Source of the DNA: a bacterium
GTDB lineage: Bacteria > UBA8248
NCBI GenBank assembly: GCA_965207065.1
Contig: OZ242260.1
Location: 96,001-160,000, forward strand
Direction: 5' to 3'
Length of the DNA: 64,000 bases
Shown here: positions 11,812-30,129 of the stretch, piece after piece
Position numbering within the stretch: the stretch's first letter is position 1
How the letters are laid out: each line of letters begins with the position of its first letter
Position numbers and translations under genes: made by a program
Notes under the pieces: generated by a model
Databases searched by the model: none
The model's input: only the letters and a program-made list of their open reading frames with translations
What the model was told of the DNA's origin: nothing

Positions 11812-12490
11812 AATCCTCGTGTTGACATGAATGCCGCATGCCGGATTGTGTTTTCTGCCTCTCGTGAAAATCTCACCCTGTATCCGGAATGAACGGGCGG
11901 TCTCGATTGCCACGCTCGAATGACGACACTCCCCCCGGGCGTCCGTCCGCTCACGCCGTGACGGCGGTTACAGGCTGGCCACGGCTTCGTACGCCGTCCC
12001 GACGGGACGGGCCCGGCGCGTTGTTTTCGGGACCATTCAAGTCGACAGAAGAGCCTGGCGCTTCGAGTGCATGAACGGAATAATAATATCCACTTTTTCT
12101 CGTAGAAGACAACAAAATCATCTGCATCTGGTTGGTGGTGAGGCCCACTTCGTCGCCTCCGCCGACGGCCGACAGCAGCGCGAAGGGGTGTGCAAAATTT
12201 GCAATGCATCCGATATCTTTTTGATTACGGGCTTTAAAATGTAGATTTCACGCCATAATATAACAATTATAACGAGATAAATATCAACTAGATATAAGAA
12301 TTCAACGCTATTCCAAAAGAGTCCTCCATCTAAAAAGCCGGAAATTCGCAGGAAAATCCCTTTTTCTATGTAATCAGGAGGACTCACTAAATGATGTTCA
12401 AAGAGAAATCGATAAGCAAGCTTTACGCTTATGCCCTGGCGGCGGTGTTCGCGCTGACGCTGGCCGGCTGCGGCGGCGGCGGCGGAACGG
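11812..12490 (+). repeat. Conserved upstream block, leader and signal-peptide region of A2 (paralog of about 25258-25885)
   Basis: Colinear similarity by eye, e.g. GGATTGTGTTTTCTGCCTCTCG and GATAAATATCAACTAGATATAAGAATTCAACGCTATTCCAAAAGAGTCCTCC occur in both copies. Confidence 0.85.
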
Positions 12491-14076
12491 CCGCCGTTGA
12501 AGAAGAGACGCCCGCCATGCCGACACAGCAGGAAATGTGTGAGGGTGACGGCGGTCGGTATAACGCGGACGGTTCATGCTCCTCTGCCGCGGAAGTTGCC
12601 GAAGAAGGCGCCCTGAGCGATGCGCAGGAAGCCGCCATGATGGCCTATATGAAGGCCAAGGATTATGTAGAAAGCGCGGTGGACCCTGTGGCGATGTCGA
12701 ACGCGTACAAATACGCGGCGATGGCCAAGGAATCTTCCGACGCGGCGGAGATGGCCACGACTTCCGCAATGGCCATGACTCACCAGACAGCGGCCGAGAA
12801 GTACCGTGACATGGCGATGGAAGCTTCCATGATGGACGGCCTGGGAATTACCATGCTCGCGAACAGGCAGTTGAACAAAGCGCCAGAAGATTTGCAGGAA
12901 CAGCCTGACCCGCCGAAACCCATCACGAATGTAAGAAATGTCCACGCCGAGATAAATACTGTTTCTCAGACTACGACTCCGAACAGCGACGGGGCTACCG
13001 TACCTACGGTCGCGGTAACTTACGCCGCAACGGCAACTAAACCAACCTTTACAATTACCGACTATGAGGCTGGCGAATCACCAAAGAGTTTCTCGATGGG
13101 AAGCTTCATGGGAACCGAATTGGTGAACATTGAGACTGATGTAGGTGGAGTGGCCGGAAGAACGAATGTCGTTCTTTATTCAGACAGGGCGCAAACTGAA
13201 TCTGTAACCAATTATGCCGATAGCGGAGACGATTTCGTTGATGTCGGCGCTCTGGTGGGTGGCGCAAATCATGTAACCTCACTGTCAGAGGGACAGATTT
13301 CAGGAGCGATGGGAGATAAGGTAGAGGGCACATATAATACGGATTCGAAAGACAATAACCCGGCTGTATCGGGCGCCTTCTACTGTTCTATGACTCTATG
13401 CACCTTGAACGTAAATTCCAAAGGAATGATAACCGCAAACGTCGGCTATCAATTCCGTCCGGAATCCGGCAAGACAACAAAAGATGATACAAGCTATCTC
13501 ACCTTGGGCTTCTGGCTTACCGCTCCCACCGCCTTGACTGCGGAAGGGGCGGCGCCTGGCGGTATCGTGGCAGGCGCTTTTGGGATGGGGCAAGGAACTG
13601 CTGTTGAAATACCGGCCGCGTTAGAAGAAACGGCCACCTATGAAGGTATCGCTACCGGCCTGTATGCAACAAAGGACGGTATCAGCTATTTCAGTGGCGA
13701 CGCCATGCTCGAGGCTAACTTTGGACAGGTAAAGGACCTGGCTGATGATGCTGATGATACTACCGCTGGTTTCCGGGGAAGTGTAAGCGGAAGCATTTCG
13801 AACATCACTGCTGGTGGAATGAAGATGGAAGGTGAGCTCGGCTTGTCTGCTGCGAATATAGCCGGTGATACAACTGGCACATATTCCGGAAATACAAAAG
13901 GCAGCGTAGGAGACAGCAGGTTTGTTGGAAGCTGGAGAGGAACATTCTATGAAGCAGGAAGAGCGACCACTCCAGCCGATTCAAGGTATCCGATGTCTAC
14001 GGCTGGAACGTTCAGCGGTTATGATGAATTCAACAACTCCAGCATCTTGGGCGCTTTCGGCGCGAACAAGCAGTAG
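12391..14076 (+). CDS. Surface lipoprotein family A copy 2 (A2), TbpB-like C-terminal barrel
   Basis: LAGC lipobox plus Gly linker, Ala/Met-rich helical segment, YLTLGFWL, ATYEGIATGLY, GSWRGTFY, C-terminal ILGAFGA. Confidence 0.85.
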   Translation: MMFKEKSISKLYAYALAAVFALTLAGCGGGGGTAAVEEETPAMPTQQEMCEGDGGRYNADGSCSSAAEVAEEGALSDAQEAAMMAYMKAKDYVESAVDPVAMSNAYKYAAMAKESSDAAEMATTSAMAMTHQTAAEKYRDMAMEASMMDGLGITMLANRQLNKAPEDLQEQPDPPKPITNVRNVHAEINTVSQTTTPNSDGATVPTVAVTYAATATKPTFTITDYEAGESPKSFSMGSFMGTELVNIETDVGGVAGRTNVVLYSDRAQTESVTNYADSGDDFVDVGALVGGANHVTSLSEGQISGAMGDKVEGTYNTDSKDNNPAVSGAFYCSMTLCTLNVNSKGMITANVGYQFRPESGKTTKDDTSYLTLGFWLTAPTALTAEGAAPGGIVAGAFGMGQGTAVEIPAALEETATYEGIATGLYATKDGISYFSGDAMLEANFGQVKDLADDADDTTAGFRGSVSGSISNITAGGMKMEGELGLSAANIAGDTTGTYSGNTKGSVGDSRFVGSWRGTFYEAGRATTPADSRYPMSTAGTFSGYDEFNNSSILGAFGANKQ

Positions 14077-14098
14077 AAACAGAGTATAACGCCATCAT

Positions 14099-14127
14099 CG
14101 GCCCCGGGCTCTCTGAGCCCGGGGCCG
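14099..14127 (+). other. GC-rich intergenic hairpin between the A and B genes (also about 27544-27570)
   Basis: CGGCCCCGGGCTC-TCT-GAGCCCGGGGCCG, 13-bp perfect stem, no U-tract. Confidence 0.7.
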
Positions 14128-14216
14128 GGGGTTCTCAAAGCAAACGATTTATTGGACCTGGTTTCAACCGCCCGCCCTCTTCTTTCCCGGAAGGGGACGT
14201 AACCCTCAGGGGGCAA

Positions 14217-15923
14217 GTGATGAAAATGCTCAGATATTCAGGATTGGCGGTACTTGTCGTGTGCATTGCGGCATTTGCCTCCGGTTGCGGCGGTGGCGGT
14301 GGCGGCGGTACTGCGGATGATATGACGACGGTGATGGAATGCCCGCAGGGCAAGATCGGCACGTACCCGGACTGCATGGATCCGCCAAAGACCGATGCTG
14401 ACAGGATAGCCGACGCGAGACGGGAACTTTCAATTATCCTTACGAATGCCCGGGCACGAGCGGGGGCGGCGAGTTCGGCCGCGGCCGCGATACGGACCAA
14501 TGCCGACGCCACGCCCGCTCAAATCACGGACGCCAACAGCGAGAGTAATACGGCGCAAAGCGCCCTGGCGCGTATCGTGAGCGCGAATACTGCGGCAACC
14601 CTGGCCACTACGCCGGCGGAGGCGAATACGGCGCTTACGGACGCGAGAGCGGCTCAAGTCACTCTCAACACATCCGCATCGGCAATATCCAGGATTCAGG
14701 GCGCCGTGCAAGCGGCCGCGAACCGTCGCAGACAACAGGCAGCGAACGAGGCCGTCTTGACGGGCGGGTCCTCGCTCATCAAGCACTTGAGGGACAACAG
14801 GAAAGTATCCGATGCGGTTCTGAGTGGACTAGCGGCCACTTCCCTCGTGGGGGGGGCAACAGGTTCTACTACAGGCACCGCCACTTATCCGTACCACAAA
14901 GGTGACCCCGCAACGCAATATCCAACCCCCAGGAATACAGATAGAGGCGTGCTGGGAGTAACGGTATCGGTCGGTACGACGCCCGTATCGTCGAATAGCC
15001 AGACGGGCAAAATCTCCGGGTCAGGGCGTCTCTCTAAAGGCTTCGACCTGAAAGACGGCGGTAGATTCGCCACTGTCTACACGGATATTACGGTAGACAC
15101 AAGGGTAAGGCAAAAAGATGGGAATACCGCCACAGATACTGCCACAGAGGACACTACTGTAGGGGATACTGACGACGGTATAGACCAGCGGTATCAGTAC
15201 GTCGCCGACGATGATTATCTGCTCGCCGGAATCTGGCTCGATGATGCAACTGCCAGCACTTCCACCCTGATGGCATTTGGGTTCGGGAGTCAGGCTCTAG
15301 CCGCGACTCACGATTTCTGCACCGCTGCTGATGTAACTAACACTACTTCGCTGTCTAGGGCGTGCGGTAATGCGACCGGTAGAAACTTTAACGAGATAGC
15401 CGGATTCGTTGACGAAAATGAGAGCACGGAAGCAACTTACCGCGGGGGTGTGAACGGCGCGTATTTCGCCGGCGGAAAGGCCAGCCATTTCAAGGCGAAT
15501 GTATCGCTCACGGCTACATTTGTGCGCGGAACCGGGACAGATGCTACGGGCAGCAAGATTTCAGGAGAAATCACGGGCATCAGCGCCGGTGGAAGTTCCG
15601 TCACGGGAAGCATTGATTTGAAGGAACAGGCGCTTGGAAATGACATCAGCGGCGCTTTTGGAACTGATGGGGCCGGTGGTGATGCCGCTGGCGTAATAGA
15701 GGGTCACGCCTATACCGGCAGCTGGAAGGGCCAGTTCTTCGGAATGAGAGCCAGGAAACTGACTCCCGTTACAACCGGAACAGTTGCTAATAACGATCGA
15801 ACAACAACGACAACCTACACCCCGGACAAGCCTGGTTCTGTTGCAGGCTCGTTTTACGTCAACAGACAGACGGTTGGCGAAGGAAACGCCGCCTTCATCG
15901 GGGCGTTCGGGGCGCACAGGTAA
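14217..15923 (+). CDS. Surface lipoprotein family B copy 1 (B1), TbpB-like C-terminal barrel
   Basis: ASGC lipobox plus poly-Gly, CPQG..GTYPDC, DYLLAGIWL, ATYRGGVNGAY, GSWKGQFFG, FIGAFGA. Confidence 0.85.
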   Translation: MMKMLRYSGLAVLVVCIAAFASGCGGGGGGGTADDMTTVMECPQGKIGTYPDCMDPPKTDADRIADARRELSIILTNARARAGAASSAAAAIRTNADATPAQITDANSESNTAQSALARIVSANTAATLATTPAEANTALTDARAAQVTLNTSASAISRIQGAVQAAANRRRQQAANEAVLTGGSSLIKHLRDNRKVSDAVLSGLAATSLVGGATGSTTGTATYPYHKGDPATQYPTPRNTDRGVLGVTVSVGTTPVSSNSQTGKISGSGRLSKGFDLKDGGRFATVYTDITVDTRVRQKDGNTATDTATEDTTVGDTDDGIDQRYQYVADDDYLLAGIWLDDATASTSTLMAFGFGSQALAATHDFCTAADVTNTTSLSRACGNATGRNFNEIAGFVDENESTEATYRGGVNGAYFAGGKASHFKANVSLTATFVRGTGTDATGSKISGEITGISAGGSSVTGSIDLKEQALGNDISGAFGTDGAGGDAAGVIEGHAYTGSWKGQFFGMRARKLTPVTTGTVANNDRTTTTTYTPDKPGSVAGSFYVNRQTVGEGNAAFIGAFGAHR

Positions 15924-15990
15924 CGAAGAAAAACGCCTCAGACCCCCGGGTGTAAGCTCCCAGGCCTGAGCGAAAGAAGGAGAGCGAAAA

Positions 15991-16093
15991 GGGGGTTGCC
16001 CGTTGGTTGCTTCCCTCGTGATGAAGCAAACTGTACCGTTCCTCGTCATGAGTTTGAGTCCTCGGACCGGGAACGGGAGTAACGGGCAGCCCC
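15991..16093 (+). ncRNA. Putative three-way-junction structured RNA, copy 1 (C4-antisense-like architecture)
   Basis: Closing stem GGGGTTGCCCGTT/AACGGGCAGCCCC, two internal stems, compensatory changes versus the copies at 20755 and 29375. Confidence 0.7.
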
Positions 16094-16133
16094 TGTTCTT
16101 CTTATACGCGATTCGTAAGTGCTTGATATATGA

Positions 16134-16193
16134 GAAAAAGGGACCTCCCTCTCTCCCAGGATCGACTGAAATTGAGAGAGGGCGGTCCCTTTC
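16134..16193. terminator. Probable bidirectional terminator-like hairpin (paralog about 29519-29582)
   Basis: AAAAAGGGACCTCCCTCTCTC...GAGAGAGGGCGGTCCCTTTCTT; stem retained in the second copy. Confidence 0.55.
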
Positions 16194-16755
16194 TTATGTG
16201 GACATCTATCAAGTTATGCGGTCGATGTAGATGCAGGAGTTTTCCGTTCTGGCTACCGTTCTTCGGTGCCGCGTATGCCTTTTCTTGTTCGTGCCTGCCT
16301 GTCGCAAGAGCACGAAAAACCTCCTGGCGGGTTTTCGCATCCCTTACCTCCAGGGAGCATATCATCGCACCATTTGATTCATGGTTTCGAAGCCGACCCT
16401 CTTGAATCGATGAATTTGAAATCAGGCAATTACTGATTCATGTTCCCGCCTTCGTGGGGATGAAGCGGGGAAGCCTGACGATGGATTCACCCGTAAACCC
16501 CACCAAGAAAGCAAATAAAGCTGTTTTCGCCGGGAGGCGATGGCGCACCCGGCGTTCCGGCCCCCCCGGTATCCGGTTCCGGCGGAAAACGCATGGCCTT
16601 GATCGCACGCCTGCGCGCGTCTGTCGTAAAACCGTCGAAATTCCGTTTTCTATCTGGTTGAAATCCTCATATATTCGTCATCCAGGACCACGGGAGCGCC
16701 GGCTGGAAATCCCCGGCGCCGCTCCCGCGACACGCAAGATGGGGAGAGCGACTCT

Positions 16756-17340
16756 TTGGGAATCCGCGCACGAGACAGAAATCGCAACGGCCGGAGGGCC
16801 GTCCTGGATCCGGCCGCGTGGTACCGCTCCTTGTTCTTGGCGGCAGTCTTCGTCGTTTCCTTGTCGGCGCTGGCCTGCGTCGTCGGTCTCGCTCGCGACA
16901 CGACGGGCCATGACTGGCATGCGAGCGGCAAGCTCTTTTGGGCGGAAACACTGCTCGCACTAAACTTCGACCCCAGGACACAGGTCAAATACCGGACGAG
17001 GGAGGGCAAGGAAGTGACTATCGCCCGCGGCGACCTCACGTTCAGCGGCGAAGCACTGCTGGCGCGGGACCGTCTCCTACACACGGCGAAGCGGTCCGCC
17101 GAACTTGGCGCCTGGTGCGGCATCGGCGGCGCGCTGATATGCCTGGCGCTGGTCTGGTGTCATGAGGCCGAACGCGGCGAGCGGCACACGCCGCAGGAGC
17201 CTCGCAGGATGAGGCCGGACTCGGGTTCACCGACGCCCGCGGCCACGGCGCACGTTCGCGCACCGGCGGACCGGCCGAAGGGACCGGATGCTCCGCGGCC
17301 TAGGAAACCCCGTCCTGCGGGTACGGACCGCAGGACGGCG
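16756..17340 (+). pseudogene. Membrane protein fragment resembling a conjugative coupling-protein (TraD-like) N-terminus
   Basis: Two TM segments around HDWHASGKLFWAETLLALNFDPRTQVKYRT; no ATPase domain follows. Confidence 0.4.
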
Positions 17341-17349
17341 GCCCCAGGC

Positions 17350-17830
17350 TCACCCGACGGTGGAGCTTCGCATCTGCGATACCTGCCCGCGCCTCGAGGA
17401 CGCCGCGAGCATCATCGCCCTCTACGCCTCCCTGATCCGGTGGCTGGCGCGCCTGGACGGCGAGGGCCGCCTGCCGCCCGAGCCGCCCACGGAGATCATC
17501 GCCGAGAACCGCTGGCTCGCCCAGCGGTACGGTGTGCTGGCCTTTCTCGGCGACATGGACCTTGGAGGGCGGGTGGACATCGAGGACTACGCAACGGAAC
17601 TGATCGAGAAACTCACCCCCGACGCCCGGGCGCTGGCGTGTGAGGATCAAATGCGCCACGCGCTCACCATCATCCGGGAGGGCAGCAGCGCAGACCGGCA
17701 AGTCGATCATTTCCGTCTTTGCCGCCTGAATGGCGAAAGCCGCGAAGAGGCCATGCGCTCCGTGGTGGATATGGTGCTCGCCGAAACCCGGGGGAGGGTG
17801 TCCTCTGAACGCCCGGACGGCTCGAGGTGA
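17350..17830 (+). pseudogene. Carboxylate-amine ligase (YbdK/GCS2 family) C-terminal fragment
   Basis: HPTVELRICDTCPRLED...ENRWLAQRYG...IIREGSSADRQ; N-terminal half absent. Confidence 0.75.
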
Positions 17831-18105
17831 AACGGAGGCCTCCCGCAGAGCGCACTCCGGTTTCCGTTCCGATAGAAACAAATCACTCTAAATGGGGTCC
17901 GAACGGCGAGGGGATCGGCGTAAACGCCGGCGGGCGGATGGATTCCATGTGAGCGATGTTCACGAGTCGCCCGTCAGGACAGGCGCTTCAAATCCGGTGA
18001 TCATCCAGGGCCGGGTGGAAAGCATGGTTTGTGATCCCCATTTTCTATTATGGGATATCCGGTGGCAAGCGGCTAGGATTGCGATTTCATGAGCGGGTCA
18101 TTGGG

Positions 18106-18279
18106 ATGAGAATCCTGGGACGGATCATGTGTCTTGCCGCGGCGCCTTTTCTGCTTGCGGGATGTGTGATCACTACCGGCCTGGGAGGGGCCGTGGGCGG
18201 AGCGCTGGCGATTTATCGCGCCCTGGAGATTACAGTCGTGACAGGCAAGGCGTTGTCGCCCAGGGAGCAGTCGGGCTAA
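18106..18279 (+). CDS. Small putative lipoprotein
   Basis: MRILGRIMCLAAAPFLLAGC lipobox, Gly-rich tail. Confidence 0.4.
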   Translation: MRILGRIMCLAAAPFLLAGCVITTGLGGAVGGALAIYRALEITVVTGKALSPREQSG

Positions 18280-19824
18280 GACGCCCGGTACGGTGAAATC
18301 GCGGAATGGGGCGAACCGCAAAGAATCGGCTGTTTTTCCGGGCCGGAAAGGCAAAAAGCCACGGCGAGCGGTGAATTCCTCGCACTGGAGATCGGGCGAA
18401 AAACACGCATGTTCCTGACGAATGCGAACGCTCGGGGTTGCCGGATTAGGCACCAGGGTGGAGCCCGCTCCATCGAACTCGGCGCGCCGACTCAAGCGTC
18501 ATTCGTTAACGTTTGCCGCGACCCCGTCTCCGGCCGTGATCATGCGTTGGTTCTCACGTCCGTCGGCGTACGATCGAGCGTCCAGGTCTGGTCCGTCGAA
18601 CCTGCGACGTAAACCCCGGTTTTTCTGTTTTCGGAGGATTTGGCGACAGTGAAGGATCGGGCCGGCGACGAATGGGGAATGGAGCGTCTGGTCGCTGCTG
18701 ACGGGGCCTGCCTCTGGAGAGGCCTGCGAGCCGCACGCAAGACCACCAGCGCCGCTATATCCGTCCTGGGCGTAGGCCGAGTGAATCGAGGTTCCGATGG
18801 AGGGGTCGTCCGTATTGCCGACACGCGGGATTCCGGCCGCGACGGCTCCGAAGAAAAAACGGTCTATGCCGACGACGCTGGGAGAAGCTCCTGGCGCATC
18901 GTCCAGGCGTTCGGCTCGGCCTCGTGCGAAACGGCGGAGGTGGTTCTCGTGCTGGACCGCCGCAGGAGTGCCTGGAGGTCGGTGTAAGATTTTGCGCCTG
19001 CGCATTCGAAATGTTTGAATTTTCCCTTGCGGGGCATGGTTGTGAGAGGTGACCGCCTGTTCGCCCGGATATGTGCGGATTGCGAATCGGACGGGCGCCG
19101 GGACTTCGTGATCGATTTATGCTCGTTCACGCTGAAGCGCCTGGATTCGGGAACCAGGCAGCCGGGAGCCGGCCCGACGAGAAATCCGCCGATCCCCGAC
19201 ATCGTCAAGGAGGTTTTCAGGGAATAGTCGATGACCGCCAAGAACGCACCGCACCCAGGCTCCGCCTTCCCGTCTCTTCCTTCGACAAGCCAATCAGAAA
19301 CGACGTCGGAGAAGGCGAGAGGCTTCACACTTCACCTCCCGAGTGGCAAGCAAACGCACGAACGACTCAAACACGCTCGCCGCGGAGGAGAGCAATACCC
19401 TGGACCACGGCGCGTAGTTTAAAGGACATCGATATTCAGAGCCGCAAGCAGCAGATGTATCGTGTCTCGGAGAGTTATGGGGAATTCGACGAATCTGTTC
19501 TTGCGCGTCGATATATACCGCACTTAATGAACGTTTGGTGTTTTGAGGTTCGTCGAGACGGTTCCGGGTCTTAGGTTTGCAGGTTGAATTGCTCCGTGAG
19601 AGTGGCGTTGCGCCACGAAACGGTTGCAGGCCCGATGGCATGAATATGATTTCTTGAAGAGAAAGCTCTCATGCCGGGAGCTTGCCGTACCGGGCCTGAT
19701 TAATGTTTGGAGAAGTTGAGCATATAATAGATAATACCCGGCGAATCGGGGGAACCCTGACGACCACGCCTCCCTGTCGATCCCCGGTTTCCTGTACGGT
19801 GTCACGAATCGAGAGGCCGGCGCA

Positions 19825-20319
19825 ATGAAACCTGTCGTATACATCGAAACATCGGTCATCAGCTATCTCGTTGCGCGTCCCTCACGGGATGTCGTGGTTG
19901 CCGCATATCAGGAAGTGACGCGCGAATGGTGGCGAGTGGCGGCGAGTAGATTCTCACTTGTTGCATCGGAGCTTGTCGTCACGGAATCGGGAGCGGGCGA
20001 TAAAGAAGCTGCCCGTGAGCGTTTGGAGGCGCTAAAGGCCGTTACGCTTCTCAACGTTACCGAGGAAGCCGAGGATTTTACCCGACGTCTGCTTGTTCTT
20101 GGCGCGGTCCCGGGCCAGGCCGCCGTTGACGCCGCGCATATCGCCTTTGCGTCCACGAACGACGCGGATGACCTGATCACGTGGAACTTCCGACATATCG
20201 CCAATGCCGCGATACGCTCAAGAATCGAGCGGGCATGCCGTCAGAACGGCTACCAACCGCCGATTATCTGTACCCCAAGCGAACTGATGGAGGTGGATCA
20301 TGAATCCGATAACGACTGA
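19825..20319 (+). CDS. PIN-domain (VapC-like) toxin
   Basis: VYIETSVISYLVARPSRD, DAAHIA, LITWNFRHIAN, PIICTPSEL. Confidence 0.85.
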   Translation: MKPVVYIETSVISYLVARPSRDVVVAAYQEVTREWWRVAASRFSLVASELVVTESGAGDKEAARERLEALKAVTLLNVTEEAEDFTRRLLVLGAVPGQAAVDAAHIAFASTNDADDLITWNFRHIANAAIRSRIERACRQNGYQPPIICTPSELMEVDHESDND

Positions 20320-20497: not shown

Positions 20498-20754
20498 GGT
20501 TTGCTGAAGAATCGGGATAGGGAATGGTTCGTATTCAGGTTCAGGCGGTTTGGCTCACACCGGGGACATGGTGGAATTTGTGCTTGCCACGGGCATCCAG
20601 AGGGTTCTCCAGAGAGCGGCAGGCTGTTAACGGTTGCCTTGATTACATGGACAAAGAAAACTAAATCGTTCTTTAAAATCTACCATCAAGGCGCTGCAAT
20701 GGAAGCAAGGATAGACGCCCTTTAAAAAAAGTAACTGCTTCCGAAAGGTTATTA

Positions 20755-20861
20755 GGGGTTGTCCGTTGGTTGCCTCTACATCGTCGGGAGGTAAATTGTA
20801 CCGTTTTCCTGGTTAAGAGTTTGAGTCCTCTCACCGGGAATCGGGAACAACGGGCAACCCC
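20755..20861 (+). ncRNA. Putative structured RNA, orphan copy
   Basis: Same fold and invariant GAGTTTGAGTCCTC as 15991 and 29375; followed by ACTTTTT. Confidence 0.7.
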
Positions 20862-21061
20862 ACTTTTTGTAGCCGCTTTATAGGAAACCCTCCTGCCAGG
20901 GCGACCTTGAGGAGAAGCGGTGAGTCGCATGTTGAGATCGTCGAACGGCTGCAAATAGGAAAGCTGAACCATTACAAAAAAGGCCTGCTCAAAAAGATCG
21001 AAGATCGCGGAGGCAGTAGCAAGGATCTGATCGAAGCACTCCTCTACAAGCTGTGGCACTC

Positions 21062-21700
21062 CTATTGGGAGAAAGACCGAGCCGCCGATACCGACAGCGA
21101 TACACCGGAGTCGGCCCGCGCTGCATCCGGGTCGGGGAGCAGGTTGCCCGCCAGAATCGCATGAAGGTTGAGCATCGTGTGGCGATTGAAGCCGATGTTC
21201 TCCGCCGAATCAACGAGAAACTCGATTGCTTCATTATGGTTGAGGATCATCTGCGCTTCGTGTCGTTCCTTTCCTTCCGCTTCTTCACCGAGCTCAGGCA
21301 GACGCGTAGTATCGAGCAGAAAATAGGTGTTTCCCTCGAGACGGCTCGAGTTCCAGGCCAGATCGATTAACAGCCAGTTCAAGGTTTTTTTGACGTAGGC
21401 GCCGTCAGGCTGCGCCTCCATCTCCGGCCTTCCAACCTTGTGGAGGTTCGACCGCTCCGTATCTGAGAGACAGAAGGTGTCGTTGGGCCGGTGAGAATTA
21501 AGGAATTCCCGGTTATACCCGACCGGCTTACGTGACTGGTGGGCCGGTGGACATACTTCCGAATCTCGATGCTGGGACCGGAGATTGGCGGCAGGACTTC
21601 GAGACGTGCTCTAGCTGTGGAGTCTCCTGCAGGCACTTGTGGGCCTCCAGCGAAACCGCTCTTGGTACGCCGTAGCGCGCTCAGCGGCCCGAGCCCTTCA
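21062..21700 (-). pseudogene. Fic-family protein remnant
   Basis: VGYNREFL..RPN.TF, LLIDLAWNSSRLEGNTY.LLDT, EAQMILNH.EAIEFLV; the FIC motif region is missing; upstream boundary approximate. Confidence 0.75.
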
Positions 21701-22034
21701 CGAACAGACGATTGGCATCGACGAGAGAGACTTTAGGCGGTATTGCAGGGTAGGCGCGGCGGAGCGGACTTCAGTGCCTCGCTAATGCTGCGCGGTCATG
21801 TCTACTGGATGCCCACGAACGATCTCCTCGATTGCTCGCAGGTTTTCTTCTTGTACATGCCTCTCCACGTTTCTCTCCAAATTGCGCGTATATCTATACA
21901 CACAATTCAAGGCATCTACGCGCAGCTTTGAACTGTACGCGCAAACAATCTGGCGCGTATTCCTATAATGTTACGTGTAGAACACCTGGCGCAGCTTTGG
22001 AATCTGAATCTCTACCGGCAACCCTCGCCCGGGG

Positions 22035-22118
22035 GTTACGAAAAACAGGAGGCTCACTTTCCAGATTGACGAGGCCGAGATCGAAATCGCCGACCTGAAC
22101 CATGAAGACTATCACTGG
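22035..22118 (+). pseudogene. HigB (plasmid maintenance killer) toxin C-terminal remnant
   Basis: VTKNRRLTFQIDEAEIEIADLNHEDYH resembles the ...NWRLTF...DLNYEDYH terminus. Confidence 0.65.
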
Positions 22119-22127
22119 ATTGGGAGA

Positions 22128-22439
22128 ATGATGATGTGTGCAACCGGTGGTATACGAATGAAGAACCCGGCTCATACGGCGGCTTCGTAAAGAGCGAGAT
22201 CATCGAAGCGCTCGGCTTGTCGGTGACCGAAGCGGCAAGGGATTTGGGAGTCACTCGTCCGGCGCTCTCCGCACTACTCAACGAGCGCGTGGTTCTCTCG
22301 CCCTTTACGGCGCTCCGGATAGATAAGGCGTTCGGCGTCTCGATGGACACGCTGATGCGGATGCAGAAGAACGGCTGCGACATCGCCCGGGCGCGAAGGC
22401 GAAATCGACCTCGTCCCCTATAAAGGGCAGGTCGTTTGA
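22128..22439 (+). pseudogene. higA: HigA antitoxin, frameshifted
   Basis: IRMKNPAH followed by a frameshift into GGFVKSEIIEALGLSVTEAARDLGVTRPALSALLNER. Confidence 0.75.
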
Positions 22440-22551
22440 GGCGTATTGGAAGTTGGGTGAAAACGTTTCCAGAATTGCCGCCGTGCACCGACGCTCCTGC
22501 AATGCCTCTTGTTCACAGACCCAATATCTCGCCGGTAGAGCCGCCTTGCGA

Positions 22552-22764
22552 TCACGCGAGCATCAGGCGCTCGCCCTTGGGTTGCGGAACGGCGCGTCCC
22601 AGTTCCTTCGCCCGTTCAATCCAGAACTGCATGGCGTTCTTGATATTCCGCAACGCAGTTTCCTGATCGTCGCCGTGAGCCGTGCATCCGGGCAATTCGG
22701 GCGCCTCGGCGATGAATGCCTGATCTTCGTTGCTCCAATAGATGATGATCTCGTACTTGTGCAT
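22552..22764 (-). CDS. hicB: HicB family antitoxin (short form)
   Basis: YEIIIYWSNEDQAFIAEAPELPGCTAHGD..ETAL...W. Confidence 0.88.
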   Translation of the reverse strand: MHKYEIIIYWSNEDQAFIAEAPELPGCTAHGDDQETALRNIKNAMQFWIERAKELGRAVPQPKGERLMLA

Positions 22765-23018
22765 TAGTCGTCTCCACGCAGCTTATATTTCAGTACCAAC
22801 TGCCGAACCTGTCTCACCTGATAAGGTATCGCGTGTCCGCCACGGCTCTACAGGTTGATGATTTCCAGAATGCCTTCCTTGTCGAAGAGGTGATGGCTTC
22901 TTCGTATACGCTCCTCGAATCCCAGATACTCCATCAGGGTTCGCAGATCGGAGAATCGGATGTTCGCGTCCGACCTTCCACCGAGGATCGTCTGCAACAG
23001 TCGCTCGTGTCGGTTCAT
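22764..23018 (-). pseudogene. hicA: HicA family toxin with a single in-frame TAG
   Basis: MNRHERLLQTILGGRSDANIRFSDL...SHHLF...IINL*SRGGHAIPYQVRQVR; TAG at 22848-22850; TAATG-coupled to hicB. Confidence 0.8.
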
Positions 23019-23938
23019 TCGCTTTGTTCCTCAACTCGTCTGCATCACAGGCTTCGCGCGCTAACGGTGTCGCGCTGCTGGAGAATCTCCGTGAGGTTCG
23101 ACTCGGCGACGTCGACGGCGCTGTCGCGAAAGACGATGATGCGCTCACCGGCGGATCCGAGCGCATCAAGACAGGCAACGGGGCCGGACGCCAGCAATTT
23201 TGCATCATCTCGAAAATCGCCTCATCGAGGCAGGCGACAGTATCCGCCGTATGGGTTTCCGGATCGCTGAAACGATCGTTTCCCGTATACGCTTTATTCT
23301 CATAGTCTGGTCCGTGCCGGACTCCGGAAGAAGTACAGGTACTCCCATTCCAGATTTTTCCGGCTCGAAAGGAAATCTGTTCCTCCTCATCCTTCGATCA
23401 ACAATCGTAAAATAGCGAGGACATTGGTTCAATGATGAAAGCATATTCTGATTTTTTACACGATAAAAACGCAAGTCTTTTTCGCTCCATCGCTCAGGCC
23501 GGCGCCACGCCCGATAGCGCCGGCCAGGCATGCTCTCACGCAGTGAGGCGTGACGGTGGCGCCTGGATGGCGACGGATTACTGCAATCGAGGCAAAGAAT
23601 ACCGCAAATCGCCGATTTCTGCGCGGAAGCCATCTATGCCGCCATCGAGAGGGTCTTCACGAGCGCGCCCGGCGCCCCGCAGCAAAGAGCATGACCCGGA
23701 TGTGCCAAGACCTATAGAGCACCCGGAAATTCGTCGGTTAACTGGAGCGACGTGCAGACGCCTTCCTTGCTCACAATTCGGCAGTTTGAGCCAATGTCAC
23801 CCGAAACACCGGAAGTTAAAACTTATTCGAGTAAAGTACAGGATTTGTTATGGTGGACAAGACGATGATGAATACAACATCGGATTAGAGCGCGCCTGGC
23901 GCTTGAATGGATGTGCTCGCGTTGGAATCTTCTTCGAA

Positions 23939-24268
23939 TCAATCCTCTCGCGGCGCCCGCATCCAGCCTGCAATGTCCCGCGCTCCATGCAGGACGCGCC
24001 AGACGTCGATTTCGGTCTCCCCCTCGATGTAGAAGACAAGATACGGATACTTCCCTACGGTCCGGAAGCGCAGGCCGATGAGGTTGAGCTCATGCGCATA
24101 ACGGGGCGAACCCGCTTCCGGTCGCTCGCCGATATGGCGGATGGCATCTTCGAGCGCGTCGATGAAGCTCAATGCAACCGCTTCTCCCGACTCGGCTAGA
24201 TAATGCTCGACCGCCTCTTCCACATCGCGCCGCGCTCGCTCGCGAAGGACGACCTGTTTGTCGCTCAC
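23939..24268 (-). CDS. parE: ParE/RelE family toxin
   Basis: ARRDVEEAVEHY...GSPRYAHEL...YPYLVFY...VWRVLHGARDI. Confidence 0.88.
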   Translation of the reverse strand: MSDKQVVLRERARRDVEEAVEHYLAESGEAVALSFIDALEDAIRHIGERPEAGSPRYAHELNLIGLRFRTVGKYPYLVFYIEGETEIDVWRVLHGARDIAGWMRAPRED

Positions 24269-24504
24269 CGCGCAGGCGTTTTGCGAACCCGGCTGCGGAG
24301 CCGGTTGAAGTAGGCCGCATCGGCGGTGACTGCCGATGGAGTGGAGGCACCTTCGAGAAGCAGACCGCGCAGATGCTCGCGATCCCGGTCCTTGCGGATC
24401 AACTCCCGAACATACTCGCTCGAAGTGCTGTAGCCGTGTGCGCTGACTTGATCGTCAACGAAGGACTTCAGCGACTCTGGTAGTGATATGTTCATCGTAC
24501 TCAT
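24265..24504 (-). CDS. parD: ParD-like RHH antitoxin
   Basis: MSTMNISLPESLKSFVDDQV...YSTSSEYVRELIRKD. Confidence 0.88.
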   Translation of the reverse strand: MSTMNISLPESLKSFVDDQVSAHGYSTSSEYVRELIRKDRDREHLRGLLLEGASTPSAVTADAAYFNRLRSRVRKTPAR

Positions 24505-24741
24505 GCTCCAATACTGCCTGTATTGGCAAAATTTGTCAAGAATACACAGACATGTATGGGCCTCGGGCGCGACTGTAATCGCCGCCGTGGTCCGATACTC
24601 CTGCGGTCCCTAACGCAGATGCTTTCGATGGGATGGATTGGCCCTCCCATCGCCTGCTTCAATAAGGCATGTCGTTTTCAAAATTGTGGTCCACAGAAAA
24701 ATAAAAAGGCCGTTATCAAAAGAATTCGCCTCCCAAGAGCG

Positions 24742-25023
24742 TCAAGTCACCGGTTCAGGACCCTGGTGAGGAATTGCGTCAACGGGATTAGCGCTCTCAT
24801 CATCAACTCGTTCCCGTAAATCATCCACCGATTTACCCGGCAATTCGGGAACGACTTCGGAGAAGTGCCGAACAATTCGCTCGATCTCATCCTTTTTTCG
24901 ATCCCGTTCCATGTCTCGTATTATTGCCTGCGCTGCGAATATAGCAAAACACAACAGGTGGATTTCCACCTCGGTTCGCGGCCATTCCCGGCGCTTGATA
25001 GCCCCCATCGCGAGTTCGACCAC
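24742..25023 (-). CDS. Hypothetical protein (possibly a fragment)
   Basis: ORF with protein-like composition and no recognised motif. Confidence 0.3.
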   Translation of the reverse strand: MVELAMGAIKRREWPRTEVEIHLLCFAIFAAQAIIRDMERDRKKDEIERIVRHFSEVVPELPGKSVDDLRERVDDESANPVDAIPHQGPEPVT

Positions 25024-25783
25024 GAGCCTGTTGGGCGATTTTTCGCACCTTTCGGCTTCTATTACGAAGCACTTCCACTGCTTCGGCGTGACCCTGATGT
25101 TCTTTTGTATTGATTGGCCATCGGTTTTTGGCTTATCCTTTTGTGAAGTTTATCACGCTGATTGGTCTCCAATCGGGCTTAATAATTTCGCTGGCATCGG
25201 GCGCACTACGTTTGGAGCGCATACATCCCCAAAATGCCTCCTGAATTTCTTCCTGTCGAATCCTCGCGCCGGTATGAACCCCGCATGGCGGATTGTGTTT
25301 TCTGCCTCTCGCGAAAATCTCATTCTGAATACGGAATGAACGGGCGGCCATCATTACCACGCCCGAATGACGACACTCCCCAGTCTTCCGTCCACTCATG
25401 CCGTGACGGCGGCGACAGGCTGACGGCGCCATTCAATTCGAAAGAAGATACGGGCGCTTTGGGTATATGAACGGCTCTGCAAGATCGATTTTTTCTCGTA
25501 GACGGCAACAAAATCATCCGCATCTGATTAGCGGTGAAACCCGCTTCGTCGCGCCCACCTCTCCGACACAGGCGCGACAGGACGCGCAGAATTTGTAATG
25601 AATCCGCTATCTTTTTGATTACGGGCTTTAAAATGCAGATTTAACGCCATAATCAAAGAATTATAACTAGATAAATATCAACTAGATATAAGAATTCAAC
25701 GCTATTCCAAAAGAGTCCTCCATCTAAAAAGCCGGAAATTCGCTGAAAATCCCTTTTTCTATGTATTCAGGAGGACTCACTAA

Positions 25784-27526
25784 ATGATGTTCAGAGAGAA
25801 ATCGATAAGCAAGCTTTACGCTTTTGCCCTGGCGGCGGTGTTCGCGCTGACGCTGGCCGGCTGCGGCGGCGGCGGCGGAACGGCCGTGATGGAAGAAGAG
25901 ATGCCGATGCCGATGCCTGACCCGCAGGCGGATTGCATGGATGCCGGCGGCCGGTATAACGCGGACGGTTCCTGCACCTCCGCTGAGGACGTAGCCGAAG
26001 AAGGCGCCCTGAGCGACGCGCAGGACGCGGCCGCGGCGGCGGCAGCGGCTGCGATGATGGCCGTGGGCGGCGCGGTGGACCCCGTGGCGGCGCATAACGC
26101 GTACGGTTACGCGAAAATGGCAGCGGATGCCAACACGGCGGCGCAGGCGGCCACGACTTCCGCAGACGCCATGGGTCACCAGATGGCGGCCGAGACGGCC
26201 CAAGGCAAGGCGATGATGGCGGCTGGCATGCGCGGTCTGGGAATCACCAAGGAGGCGAACGCGATCACCAACCAGGCCGATATCGACAATGCCATTCTCG
26301 AGGGCCAGGATCCCGACGATCCCGATTCCAACGCGACAAGAGTGGGTACGGAGTTGGCCGCGACGGCTGCTGAAGAAGCCGCGCGGACTACAGTTGCAGA
26401 TAGTGGTCCTGGAAGCGTTTCTCAAGGCGCGCCGGCCACAAGTACAACGGTTACTTACGGCGCCAGTGGACCTACGTTCAAGGTAACCGGACCCGGAACC
26501 ACTTTGCAGCTGGGCGAATCTCCGGTAGGCGTGCTGACGACCCGCGGCGGCTGGAAGGGCAGGGAACTGGTGGAGAACGCCGCTTCCGACACTTACGTCA
26601 TGGCCTTCACGGACATCCAGGCGCCCACGATGAGGCAGAATTATGGAGATGCCACTACTGGTACAGAAGGCAATGAGGCCGAATTGGGAATAGGCCATAT
26701 CATCACCGGCGATATTCCGGGAGACGGCTCCACTTTCACGGGAACGCGTAACGTTTCCGCTACGGACAACATCCCGACACAGATGGGGCAGTTCAACTGC
26801 CCTGAAGCAGCCTCAGCAACCGGTTGTTCCATCAGCGTTGACGAAGACGGCGCAATCGTGTCGGTTCAGGGCTACGTGTGGCGGCCTCAGACATCCGGCA
26901 CGACCCCCGCGACCGACGCCGACTACCTGGCCTGGGGCGTCTGGCTGACGGTTCCGGACGGCACGGATGACTCGGACGTGGCCTTGGCAGGCGCATTCGC
27001 GAGCGGCAACGACGTGTTCACGGTCGATGCCGATCTCAAAGGCACGGCGACATATAACGGCGTAGCGAGCGGCCTGTATTCGGCGGCCGGCATGGTCGAA
27101 TACTTCGACGCGGACGTCACCCTGAATGCCAACTTCGGCGGAACCGTAGGTGCTGATTCCGATCCAGATACTGATGGCAACGACGGGGTGCTCATAGGCG
27201 CCGTCACCGGCACCGTCTCCAACATCAAGGCCGGCGGAATGGACATCGACGGTATGCTGACGCTGAAGAGAGCGCCCGTCATCGCTGGCGCACAGGACGG
27301 CGACAGCACGACCGGCTTCGGCGGCGACACCTCCGGTTCCCTGGCGGGCAGGGCAGTGTCGGGTGAATGGGGCGGCCAGTTCTACGGTCCCAACGACGCG
27401 AGCGGCAAGGGAGTCGAGACCGAATACCCCACGACCGCCGCGGGCACCTTCGGTGCGGCAGCGCCGGGTGTTGGCAGTGACATGGTCAGAATTCTGGGCG
27501 CCTTCGGCACGTGGAAGGCTGAGTAA
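25784..27526 (+). CDS. Surface lipoprotein family A copy 3 (A3), TbpB-like C-terminal barrel
   Basis: Signal peptide nearly identical to A1/A2; DYLAWGVWL, GTATYNGVASGLY, GEWGGQFYG, ILGAFG. Confidence 0.87.
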   Translation: MMFREKSISKLYAFALAAVFALTLAGCGGGGGTAVMEEEMPMPMPDPQADCMDAGGRYNADGSCTSAEDVAEEGALSDAQDAAAAAAAAAMMAVGGAVDPVAAHNAYGYAKMAADANTAAQAATTSADAMGHQMAAETAQGKAMMAAGMRGLGITKEANAITNQADIDNAILEGQDPDDPDSNATRVGTELAATAAEEAARTTVADSGPGSVSQGAPATSTTVTYGASGPTFKVTGPGTTLQLGESPVGVLTTRGGWKGRELVENAASDTYVMAFTDIQAPTMRQNYGDATTGTEGNEAELGIGHIITGDIPGDGSTFTGTRNVSATDNIPTQMGQFNCPEAASATGCSISVDEDGAIVSVQGYVWRPQTSGTTPATDADYLAWGVWLTVPDGTDDSDVALAGAFASGNDVFTVDADLKGTATYNGVASGLYSAAGMVEYFDADVTLNANFGGTVGADSDPDTDGNDGVLIGAVTGTVSNIKAGGMDIDGMLTLKRAPVIAGAQDGDSTTGFGGDTSGSLAGRAVSGEWGGQFYGPNDASGKGVETEYPTTAAGTFGAAAPGVGSDMVRILGAFGTWKAE

Positions 27527-27660
27527 CAGCGCACAACACCTTTGGCCTCGGGCTCTCTGAGCCCGGGGCCGGGGGTTCTCAAAGCAAACGATTCATTGGA
27601 CCTGGTTTCAACCGCCCGCCCTCTTCTTTCCCGGAAGGGGACGTAACCCTCAGGGGGCAA

Positions 27661-29310
27661 GTGATGAAAATGCTCAGATATTCAGGATTGGCGGTACTTG
27701 TCGTGTGCATTGCGGCATTTGCCTCCGGTTGCGGCGGTGGCGGTGGCGGCGGCGGTACTGCGGATGAAGAGATGACGCCGGTGATGGAATGCCCGCAGGG
27801 GCAGATAGGGACGTACCCGGACTGCATGGACCCGCCGCCGACTGATGAGGAAAGAATAGAAGCGGCGCAGGATAGGCTCGCCGGCATCGTGGCCGACGCC
27901 CGGACGCGAGTGGGGTCGGCGCAATCGGATGCGAACGCCGTGCAGGGCCACGCGGACGCCACGGAAGCGCAGAAGACGAACGCCGGCAATCTCGGCAACG
28001 CCGCGCGGGACGCCCTGACGGATATTTTAGGCGCGACAGCCGCGGCGAACGTGGCCACCACGGGGGCGCAGGCGGAAGCCGCGGTTTCGGACGCGCAGAC
28101 GGCGCTGAACGACCTGATAAGCGCGCAGCAATCGGTGGCGAACATCCTGAGCGCCGTGAATGCGATTGCGAACCTTCGCCAACAACAGGAACAGGACGAG
28201 CGCCTCGCGACGAACGGTTCCGGGCTTATCGAGCACGTGAGAGCCAACAAGATCGTCTATGACGCCATTCTGGCAGCCATGACGGCGGATGCTGCGGTCA
28301 ACATGACTGTTGGTGAGACTGGTAATACAGATAATATGGCTGAATACCCCAGGGATACCGGGACGGGCGCGGACAGAGTCGTTGGAGAGCGTGGAGTTAC
28401 CGTAAAAGCCCTTTCATCGAACAGCACGACGCCGAAACTCAGCGGAACGAGCCGCCTTCCTAACGGCTTCGACCTGAAAAACGATACCAACACCCTCTTC
28501 GTAAACGCCTACACGGACATTACGAAAACGAGGGCTGATGTAAGAATGAGAACGGATGTCCTGACAGACACTGATTTAAGTGATGGCGATGATAGGTATA
28601 CTACAGAAGATGTGGCCGACACAGACTATCTGGTGGCTGGAATCTGGCTCGAGAATAGGGCAATCCATGCATTCGCGTATGGGAGCCAACCGATTCCCAC
28701 TAGCAGTCAAAACTTCTGTACCGGTATTGAAAATGTAAATGACCCACAGGGTGGAACAGGTAATACCAGAAATTGCGGTGATACAGGAACTTTACACAAT
28801 ATCACCGATTTCGTCGCGGAAGACAAAGACATGACGGCCACCTACCGGGGGGATGCGAACGGCGCCTACCTCGCGGACGGCAATATGAGCTATTTCGAGG
28901 CGGACGTTACGCTTACCGCCGAGTTCCAGAATGCAGCCAATACGGGCTCTGGCAGTATCTCTGGCGCAGTCACGAACATCGTCGCCGCCGGAAAATCCAT
29001 CGCGGGGAGCGTCGAATTACAGGAACATTCCTTTACAGATGGTACTATCAATACCGCTTTCGGGGGTGATGCCGTCGGCGTGGTTGACGGCAAATCCTTC
29101 AGCGGAGATTGGGAAGGCCAGTTCTTCGGAATGAGAACCAGAAGGTCCACGAAAACGGAAACGATTATGGACAATGATCCAGAAAGAACGGTTACGACGA
29201 CGTACTCGGCCGAGGCGCCCGATGCAGTGGCGGGAACCTTTTACGCCACGCAGCAGAGCAACCCGGCGGGAAGCGCCGCCTTGATCGGGGCGTTCGGTGC
29301 GAAGAGGTAG
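27661..29310 (+). CDS. Surface lipoprotein family B copy 2 (B2)
   Basis: First about 55 aa nearly identical to B1; DYLVAGIWL, ATYRGDANGAY, GDWEGQFFG, LIGAFGA. Confidence 0.87.
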   Translation: MMKMLRYSGLAVLVVCIAAFASGCGGGGGGGGTADEEMTPVMECPQGQIGTYPDCMDPPPTDEERIEAAQDRLAGIVADARTRVGSAQSDANAVQGHADATEAQKTNAGNLGNAARDALTDILGATAAANVATTGAQAEAAVSDAQTALNDLISAQQSVANILSAVNAIANLRQQQEQDERLATNGSGLIEHVRANKIVYDAILAAMTADAAVNMTVGETGNTDNMAEYPRDTGTGADRVVGERGVTVKALSSNSTTPKLSGTSRLPNGFDLKNDTNTLFVNAYTDITKTRADVRMRTDVLTDTDLSDGDDRYTTEDVADTDYLVAGIWLENRAIHAFAYGSQPIPTSSQNFCTGIENVNDPQGGTGNTRNCGDTGTLHNITDFVAEDKDMTATYRGDANGAYLADGNMSYFEADVTLTAEFQNAANTGSGSISGAVTNIVAAGKSIAGSVELQEHSFTDGTINTAFGGDAVGVVDGKSFSGDWEGQFFGMRTRRSTKTETIMDNDPERTVTTTYSAEAPDAVAGTFYATQQSNPAGSAALIGAFGAKR

Positions 29311-29374
29311 AAGAGCATGACGCCTCACCCGGGGTTAAGCCCCGAGGCCTGAGGCGGTAAAAGGAGAGCGAAAA

Positions 29375-29477
29375 GGGGGTTGCCCGTTGGTTGCTTCCCT
29401 CGTGATAGAGCAAACTGTACCGGTCCTTGCTATGAGTTTGAGTCCTCGAGCCGGGAACGGGAACAATGGGCAACCCC
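29375..29477 (+). ncRNA. Putative structured RNA, copy downstream of B2
   Basis: Same fold with compensatory changes; same position relative to the B gene as copy 1. Confidence 0.7.
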
Positions 29478-29772
29478 TGCTCTTCTTATACGCCATTTCC
29501 GGCGTAGATGGCAAACGAGAAAAAGGGACTGCCCCCCTCTTCCGGCGATGCGGTAATTGAGAGGGAGGGCGGTCCCTTTTTTCGTGCGGGGATGTTTTGA
29601 GGGGGGGGTGGCGCGGCAAACACTTCCTCCTCGGGGTTGTTAAAAAAGGCCTTACGGATCACGCCAAACCATTCTCCCCATGCAGAGTCCCCCCAACAAC
29701 CACTCCCCCCTTGAGGGTTCTTGTCGTCTGACGAGAGAGGAAATCACTCCCCTTTGCAGAGCGCTCAACAAC

Positions 29773-29975: not shown

Positions 29976-30129
29976 ATTGTTTTCTCTCTACTCGCTCGGA
30001 TTTGACCCCTATGTCAGGAACAGCAACCCCCCCTACCCCCCCTTGTCAGGGGGGTAAAAAGACCCTCTACCCGGCGGGGGCGCATCGCCTGGCAATGCCT
30101 CGCTCGCTCGCGGCAAACGCTTCCTCCTC

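Follow-up and report, generated by a model that had tools for sequence, protein, structure and literature searches.

Does a bacterial locus in which near-identical DNA alternates with strongly divergent lipoprotein genes constitute a switch for surface variation, or does it record a slower exchange of parts within a gene family? The question is raised by a 64,000-nucleotide stretch of DNA (hereafter the window; bases 96001-160000 of a single 4,476,866-bp contig, OZ242260.1), in which an initial annotation had noticed two units, each composed of a gene A and a gene B for putative lipoproteins, joined by a short spacer and followed by a structured RNA element. The units had been interpreted as a surface-variation system, the conserved blocks of which act as homology arms for exchanging hypervariable lipoprotein bodies, with A and B as an obligate pair. 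We consider it probable, with moderate confidence, that the A-B cassettes form a multigene family whose recombination, on an evolutionary timescale, diversifies the specificity of the surface or of ligand binding. Throughout, c1 and c2 denote units 1 and 2 of the window, c3 a solo A-type gene, and c1, c2 and c4-c8 the A-B pairs of the genome.

Layout and copies of the A-B cassettes

To compare the two units, window positions 11500-16500 were aligned with 24950-29950 and identity was scored per 60-nt window. The pairwise alignment delimits unit 1 to 11793-16195 and unit 2 to 25240-29582 and reveals a sharp alternation of constant and divergent DNA, broadly 85-100% identical in the constant segments and about 50% in the bodies. 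Identity between the units amounts to 68-98% over 11793-12630 (the upstream block and the first ~80 codons of A), save for an indel of about 50 nt near 11973, to 88-100% over 14094-14387 (the spacer and ~55 codons of B) and to 68-92% at the 3' end (15959-16195), and is mostly 27-70% per 60-nt window in the A and B bodies. At the level of single genes, the leader of A2 is near-identical to that of A1 and its body shares 46% nucleotide identity with the A1 body. An independent repeat search recovered the constant blocks as repeats D6 (216 nt, 98%), D9 (161 nt, 95%), D7 (196 nt, 88%), D10 (144 nt, 88%) and D11 (144 nt, 85%), with D8, D12-D14, D18 and D20 as further families over these blocks. The common layout first described for the two units was confirmed by both approaches. 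The spacer does contain the reported hairpin, a 12-bp GC stem, at a spacer length of 137-143 nt instead of ~120 bp, and in both units gene B is followed, as described, by a strongly folding element and a hairpin with a U-run.

Using BLAST with four constant blocks, followed by extraction of open reading frames (ORFs), we found seven A-B pairs and one solo A gene (c3) genome-wide, rather than the two units and one additional A gene from which the analysis had started. The latter, reported as a third A-type gene starting at position 644 on the minus strand, was verified by ORF reading (A3). It has the 5' scaffold in common with the other cassettes only from about -57 to +103 and is directly followed in the genome by a copy of the 3' RNA element (117.7 bits with the covariance model R1 described below, L017:4760-4869). 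Four loci of the genome carry the AT-rich upstream block, each in full and with AGGAGG as ribosome-binding site. A tblastn search with the 15 A and B proteins added an 880-bp fragment of a B N-terminus, more distant lipoproteins and an A-like gene beside a gene for the lipoprotein translocon Slam.

Among 18 other searched genomes of the genus, nine contain A-B spacer DNA, six of them in 3-7 copies, and 16 further A-B pairs were extracted from relatives. The related loci come from metagenome-assembled genomes (MAGs) labelled "bacterium", "Nitrospinota", "Candidatus Binatia" and once "Chloroflexi bacterium". Of the sequencing runs in which a minor portion of the stretch occurs, several bear the label sponge metagenome, and none of the runs listed for the stretch is recorded as RNA. 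The bacterium, which is uncultured, is probably sponge-associated.

The ends of the contig show an arrangement of their own. Contig bases 1-7000 are an exact inverted copy of 4468075-4475074 (L018, L019), and the B N-terminal fragment, located at 4468947-4469826, is present twice owing to this inverted repeat. In the last 84 contig bases, following a copy of the upstream block, an ATGATG is joined out of frame to an A3-like internal segment. Such an arrangement could reflect faulty assembly or be the scar of a recombination event.

Predicted fold and probable export of A and B

All 15 A and B genes of the genome encode a lipobox followed by a glycine run, as read by eye and by pattern: LAGC in A1, A2 and A3 and ASGC in B1 and B2, each followed by Gly5-8, the codon run of this linker varying in length in frame (5-8 Gly). 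In the plan of A1, the lipobox and Gly5 precede a Cys loop, a helical bundle (~66-158) and a handle with an 8-strand barrel (~187-561); in B1 the lipobox and Gly7 precede a Cys loop, three long helices (59-181) and a handle with a barrel (206-567).

AlphaFold2 models were built for A1 from a 47-sequence alignment (predicted local distance difference test, pLDDT, 76) and for B1 from a 22-sequence alignment (pLDDT 69, with helices near pLDDT 90 and a handle of low confidence). Significant Foldseek matches of the A1 model are almost all Slam-type lipoproteins or hemophilin, the remainder being two OmpU porin chains of low probability. Aligned with VIA-align, A1 matches fHbp (4ayi_D; Z 15.5, root-mean-square deviation (rmsd) 4.7 over 204 aligned residues), the fHbp barrel alone (4ayn_A; Z 15.4, rmsd 2.3, 116 aligned), hemophilin (Z 14.1, rmsd 3.7, 198 aligned), the TbpB C-lobe (Z 13.2, rmsd 4.0, 193 aligned) and NHBA (Z 13.2, rmsd 2.8, 143 aligned), and B1 matches the TbpB C-lobe (5kkx_B; Z 13.2, rmsd 4.3, 193 aligned). 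The predicted structures of both proteins thus bear out the TbpB/fHbp-like fold that had been suggested from barrel motifs, and according to these models A and B carry a TbpB/fHbp-type lobe made up of a handle and an 8-strand barrel. Moreover, the A and B profiles align with each other over the barrel (hhalign probability 99.95%, E 1e-37), so A and B are ancient paralogues with one plan of anchor, stalk and a single TbpB-type lobe.

None of the five window proteins matches a Pfam family at E<=1, including TbpB_B_D (PF01298), of which the genome contains 18 matches, none in a cassette and a weak one at window 62637-62807. Among atlas neighbours of these proteins PF01298 is present in 16-47% of members, which we take as a lead only. 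The NCBIfam search gave sub-threshold signal-peptide matches only (the 'invert_tail' model, 23.8 bits against a cut-off of 37, covers the signal peptide and linker), and a profile search of PDB sequences returned nothing meaningful for A or B. None of the 233 homologues found in the database search has a Pfam domain, and the few named ones are called "hypothetical protein". A likeness of the B helical stalk to a trypanosome surface three-helix bundle (Z 13.3) was dropped, as such Z values are common among helical bundles. A complex prediction with A residues 28-200 and B residues 24-215 scored 0.00 without controls and says nothing on binding.

The initial annotation had proposed to look for a Slam-type translocon elsewhere in the genome, and three matches to SlipAM, the profile of Slam of the type XI secretion system (T11SS), were indeed found. 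The best (genome 596016-597398), a protein of 460 aa, aligns with the whole SlipAM profile at 102.7 bits, and its gene lies directly downstream of a gene for a 535-aa A-like lipoprotein, the N-terminus of which resembles the A leader and the body of which is 35% identical to A3. Each of the other two Slam genes lies beside a gene for a protein ending in a barrel-like GGFVATK motif. Slam was found in 22 of the 23 genomes of the genus, so that its presence cannot tell genomes with cassettes from those without.

Judging from the fold, the position of the A-like paralogue and the gene content, the most likely route of A and B to the cell surface is export by one of the three Slam/T11SS proteins. 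No Slam gene stands beside any cassette, and the nearest is ~470 kb from the window units. This would suit a different explanation, in which A and B share the fold of surface lipoproteins but face the periplasm or act as secreted hemophore-like binders, their diversity reflecting substrate range, and the scores of hemophilin/HphA, a secreted member of the fold, near those of fHbp (Z 14.1 and 12.7 in the A1 and B1 comparisons) would suit it as well. We nevertheless regard it as unlikely, since A and B bear a lipobox Cys, unlike secreted hemophores, and an A-like paralogue occupies the classical place upstream of Slam.

Probable module exchange and the question of switching

Synonymous divergence (dS) was estimated for the 15 own paralogue pairs per gene. 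It amounts to 0.09-0.56 in the first 80 codons of A and 55 codons of B, and reaches from 0.58 to saturation (>3) in the bodies. For five of the seven own copies of the spacer the nearest copy is in the own genome, at 91-100% identity compared with a between-genome mean of 71%; likewise, c1 and c2 agree at 73-97% over the ~600-bp upstream block, as against 28-52% when compared with cassettes of another species that have orthologous bodies. For the upstream constant block of unit 1 (11793-12390), identity to the upstream DNA of such orthologous cassettes amounts to only 34-45%. We then counted, among 16 eligible cassettes, those whose nearest copy is in the same genome. The count was 11 for the downstream segment, 10 for the A leader, 9 for the spacer and 8 for the upstream block, and 4 and 3 for the A and B bodies, respectively; scaffolds are closest to same-genome copies and bodies are closest to copies in other species. 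Exact identical tracts of 396 bp (c4-c5) and 332 bp (c1-c5), which far exceed the length needed for homologous recombination, connect paralogues, and c1 and c2 have an exact 158-nt tract in common at the A-B spacer.

For a linkage test, the A and B protein alignments of 23 cassettes were cut into 8 blocks each and vectors of pairwise identity over 253 pairs were correlated. A-body blocks 3-8 correlate mutually (r 0.55-0.84), as do B-body blocks 4-8 (r 0.49-0.79), whereas A-body and B-body blocks correlate with each other at r 0.01-0.29 only. The first A block correlates with the A body at r of about 0, and the three B N-terminal blocks at r 0.22-0.48 among themselves and 0.01-0.45 with the B body. 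The linked stretches terminate at the scaffolds, so that the constant blocks mark the points at which histories change. The lack of correlation between module histories already contradicts the explanation that the cassettes are old tandem or dispersed duplicates that never recombined and whose constant parts are kept by purifying selection alone. The peptide sequences of leaders and N-termini are conserved across species and covariation in the 3' element implies selection, but with a leader dS several-fold under that of the bodies, and with a non-coding upstream block and spacer that are near-identical within the genome and divergent between genomes, we find this explanation scarcely credible.

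Individual cassettes are mosaics. In c1 the scaffolds are those of its own genome, and the A body agrees at 79-97% with cassette L030 of another species; the B N-terminus agrees at 79-88% with L022 of that same species and at only 45-59% with L030, and the B body is close to both. In c2, the A2 body is equally close to the other species' L022 and L021 (72-84%), while the B2 gene shares 72-90% identity with L021 and no more than 48-68% with L022. Such re-pairing of A and B bodies needs exchanges with breakpoints between the bodies, for which homogenisation of the scaffolds alone is insufficient. The putative obligate A-B pair is based on co-occurrence, at seven of the eight loci and in the 16 further pairs of relatives, and partners have in fact been re-assorted. 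Nor are the bodies the fast-changing sequences they had been taken for; they are old, divergent lineages in common with other species at 71-88% protein identity. On a smaller scale, P0006, the closest homologue of A1 (92%, on another closed contig), is 70% identical to A1 over residues 41-80 and 75-80% over residues 281-360, the remaining 11 of 14 windows being at 90-100% and eight of these at 97-100%. This patchy divergence may point to small exchanges of recent date or to hot spots within the handle.

In the model we propose, the cassettes would be multicopy two-gene operons composed of a promoter region, A, a hairpin spacer, B, the structured 3' RNA and a terminator. A and B would be distantly related lipoproteins built alike, in which the lipid anchor and Gly linker are followed by a small disulfide loop, a stalk of helices and a single lobe of the TbpB/fHbp type. 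Gene conversion between paralogues would hold three constant segments near-identical within a genome, namely the DNA ahead of A together with its signal peptide and N-terminus, the spacer joined to the B leader, and the 3' element, and crossovers at these segments would re-assort four modules: the A N-terminus, the A body, the B N-terminus and the B body. The outcome would be a standing repertoire, combinatorial in make-up, in which each genome has ~15 different lipoproteins, with the handle domain as the most variable part. In known surface lipoproteins of this type the handle domain binds the ligand.

Several observations weigh against this reading of a recombining family of surface lipoproteins, among them the missing Pfam match of the window proteins and the distance between Slam and the cassettes given above. 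The 23 cassettes of the linkage test stem from 8 related assemblies and are not independent, so the correlations are descriptive and include no formal breakpoint test, and the first A block is short and conserved, such that low information may deflate its correlations. In the nearest-copy counts the signal of the B leader (6 of 16) and of the B N-terminus (5 of 16) is weak and intermediate. Furthermore, c7 and its counterparts in three other genomes behave as a fairly stable orthologue in most segments. Finally, a sigma-70 consensus scan found no site in the upstream block; sites in the promoter and terminator consensus scan were no more frequent than in shuffled sequence.

Could the constant blocks serve a programmed, high-frequency variation, in which bodies are swapped or converted, or cassettes switched, within a population? 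Long exact homology tracts lie on both sides of the variable bodies, and six of the eight loci lie between contig positions 40 and 125 kb or less than 20 kb from the contig end, in a region rich in mobile elements. In addition, the B N-terminal fragment and the out-of-frame fusion of the upstream block to A3-like sequence near the contig ends resemble recombination scars, and the A1 homologue of a close strain differs in patches (3 of 14 windows at 70-80%). Against these points stand 15 of 15 genes that are intact and full-length, each with its own start and lipobox, four upstream-block copies that all carry the block in full, and bodies that are old across species rather than rapidly generated. 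A tblastn search of the whole genome with the 15 proteins found no silent-cassette array, only the 880-bp B fragment and the out-of-frame stub; no frame-shifting simple repeat was noted in the stretches read, no recombinase was found inside the units and no invertible promoter segment was identified. Classical antigenic variation of the sap, pilE/pilS and vlsE types, by contrast, relies on one expressed locus and on silent copies that are promoterless or partial. We therefore hold programmed switching to be quite unlikely, and a variation system in this sense is not borne out by the 15 intact genes.

Short-read contigs from four runs end at the constant blocks, where summed depth rises, and none bridges a whole cassette, so that swapped bodies are neither seen nor excluded. 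Some low-depth (3-6), short-sided contig joints, one of them via the Gly-codon run linking 12482 to 14287, may be artefacts of the assembly graph.

All copies look expressible from their sequence, which argues for a recombining multigene family and not for a one-at-a-time antigenic switch, and since body lineages are shared across species, the variation is a standing repertoire. The initial idea of homology arms for body exchange is supported over evolutionary time, as indicated by dS, nearest copies, linkage blocks and mosaics, and not borne out for programmed swapping.

The 3' RNA element, neighbouring genes and known systems

The element downstream of B is ~110 nt long, and 15924-16200, which includes the terminator hairpin, folds at z -6.8 compared with shuffled sequence. 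In the predicted fold, a stem of 15 bp closes a three-way junction, and the loop region contains an invariant GAGTTTGAGTCCTC that resembles a tRNA T-loop; among 22 aligned copies, 10 of the 32 predicted pairs show compensatory double changes. ARAGORN found no tRNA or tmRNA, and Rfam gave no match at gathering thresholds across the whole window, the two Rfam matches of the terminator hairpin being at chance level only (E 0.02-0.03). Using the covariance model R1, built from aligned copies of the element, we found 10 copies in the genome. Eight of them directly follow the seven pairs and the solo gene, and two, at window 20750-20864 and at genome 1626569-1626675, are orphans that lack a neighbouring A or B gene; at the window orphan, tblastn detected no A or B remnant either. 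The element is thus not strictly tied to cassettes. It is present at 21 of 23 A-B cassettes; of the two exceptions, one carries a B gene that is truncated, and in the other the locus ends before the point where the element could lie. R1 scores 95-125 bits in sense orientation and 29-31 bits in those antisense matches that appear, which, together with many G-U pairs, favours a transcript over a DNA site. The element is a candidate new RNA family.

The orphan copies, as well as the position of the element 3' of 21 of 23 A-B cassettes and of the solo gene, invite the explanation that the cassettes are mobile, moved by a site-specific recombinase for which the 3' element, as single-stranded DNA or RNA, is the attachment or recognition site. 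Matches to tyrosine recombinases number 54 in the genome, and some are 2.6-3 kb away from c3 and c4. The window units themselves, however, neither contain a recombinase gene nor directly adjoin one, breakpoints are also found in the spacer and in N-terminal coding regions, and the many G-U pairs and the ~90 bits by which the sense strand scores higher fit a transcript better than a duplex DNA site, which makes this explanation very unlikely in our view. An integron-like 3' element was set aside, given that the attC arm order misfits, no integrase stands beside the units and the pairing is strand-specific.

Two further observations concern these sequences. Many of the tyrosine-recombinase matches (PF00589) lie in identical groups of 2-3 adjacent genes repeated around the genome. 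In L052, labelled a Ca. Binatia MAG and hence by title of another lineage, two tandem elements (4236-4346 and 4676-4789) lie downstream of a distant A-like gene (26% identity).

Going beyond the reading of a recombining multigene family, we tentatively raise the possibility, itself doubtful, that the scaffolds are built-in crossover sites that continually re-deal the four modules among the 7-8 loci, that lineages in one host display different Slam-exported sets, and that the tRNA-like 3' RNA is a new cis-acting motif dedicated to the cassettes, all in a sponge symbiont with relatives labelled outside the Proteobacteria. If so, the varied lipoprotein sets would help to escape phage or host recognition.

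Positions of cassette parts and related elements within the window
Feature	Position	Strand	Remark
Unit 1, upstream constant block	11793..12390	+	68-98% identical to 25240-25783
Unit 1, promoter-like AT-rich stretch in upstream block	~12190-12376	+	putative promoter, judged from sequence
Ribosome-binding site AGGAGG of A1	12377-12382	+	sequence reading
Gene A1	12391..14076	+	561 aa
Unit 1, A-B spacer	14077..14216	+	12-bp GC hairpin at 14100-14126, without U-run
Gene B1	14217..15923	+	568 aa
3' structured RNA element, copy 1	15987..16096	+	R1 covariance model, 121 bits
Unit 1, terminator-like hairpin with U-rich tail	16134..16195	+	z -5.65 for 16097-16215
Unit 2, upstream constant block	25240..25783	+	repeats D7 and D11, unit alignment
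Gene A2	25784..27526	+	580 aa
Unit 2, A-B spacer	27527..27660	+	hairpin at 27544-27570; repeat D6, 98%
Gene B2	27661..29310	+	549 aa
3' structured RNA element, copy 2	29371..29480	+	R1, 121.9 bits
Unit 2, intrinsic-terminator-like hairpin with U6 run	29525..29582	+	z -5.3
Solo gene A3, 5' part	3..644	-	547 aa in genome; A-type signal peptide and linker, different body
Orphan 3' RNA element	20750..20864	+	R1, 98.1 bits; no adjoining A or B gene

The units are surrounded by mobile-element and toxin-antitoxin genes (6694-10185, 11351-11514, 19825-20319, 22136-22472 and 23939-24268), which comprise a DDE transposase, AbiEi/AbiEii, ParE, a helix-turn-helix (HTH) antitoxin-like gene and a weak PIN-domain match (E 0.005, below the cut-off); the 3' part of the HTH antitoxin-like gene is duplicated at 11351-11514 (87-95% identical). 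Further upstream, window 2459-4213 (+) encodes a protein of 584 aa that consists almost wholly of ankyrin repeats (Ank_2, E 1e-137), in DNA with 73% GC and a periodicity of 99-102 nt; behind it, 4498-5388 holds a TPR-like ORF. Sponge symbionts typically encode eukaryote-like repeat proteins. Downstream of unit 2, window 30015-33404 holds 4-7 copies of a palindromic C-run/G-run repeat (CCCCCCCTACCCCCCCTT..CAGGGGGG and its complement), 0.4-1.5 kb apart (D3-D5).

As read from layout, dS, nearest copies and mosaics, the cassettes behave like paralogous surface-protein families under concerted evolution. Helicobacter pylori babA/babB/babC and Neisseria opa likewise have near-identical ends, divergent middles and exchange between dispersed loci; the present genes differ from these in encoding lipoproteins of another fold, in being two-gene operons with an internal constant segment and four modules, and in the conserved structured RNA of the 3' scaffold. 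The sap genes of Campylobacter fetus have in common with the cassettes a constant 5' region of ~600 bp that includes upstream DNA, followed by variable 3' parts. In sap, one promoter is moved by inversion among promoterless homologues, whereas here each intact copy has its own start signals and four share the upstream block. Segment-mosaic variants of a surface lipoprotein of the same fold are known for Neisseria fHbp (a 'natural chimera', 7nru, is among the A1 matches), where they are alleles of one locus across strains, while here 7-8 paralogous loci are involved within the genome and across species.

The likeness to the Slam/T11SS lipoproteins (TbpB, LbpB, HpuA, fHbp, NHBA, PmSLP) and to hemophilin/HphA lies in the C-terminal handle and 8-strand barrel and, for the lipoproteins, in the lipobox, the flexible linker and the presence of Slam in the genome, one copy being paired with an A-like gene. 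A and B differ from them by a single lobe placed after a Cys loop and three-helix stalk and by the absence of a TbpB_B_D match, and the A-B pairs are unlinked to Slam or, among scanned neighbours, to a TonB-dependent receptor. Most work on Slam/T11SS cargo has concerned proteobacterial pathogens, in which the cargo genes stand singly beside the translocon or receptor. In the literature cited here, the T11SS is described across Proteobacteria (PMC5449769, PMC8406197, 10.1101/2024.09.26.615229). Our literature search found no report joining a sponge or sponge symbiont with Slam, a surface lipoprotein or a transferrin-binding protein.

The cassettes would thus present the same fold as a large unannotated family organised in paired, recombining cassettes. 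If surface-exposed, the A and B proteins would be prime candidates for a role in how sponge symbionts recognise their host, vary their phage receptors or capture nutrients. The scaffold-and-module design offers a natural model for bacterial surface diversity that arises without a dedicated switch.

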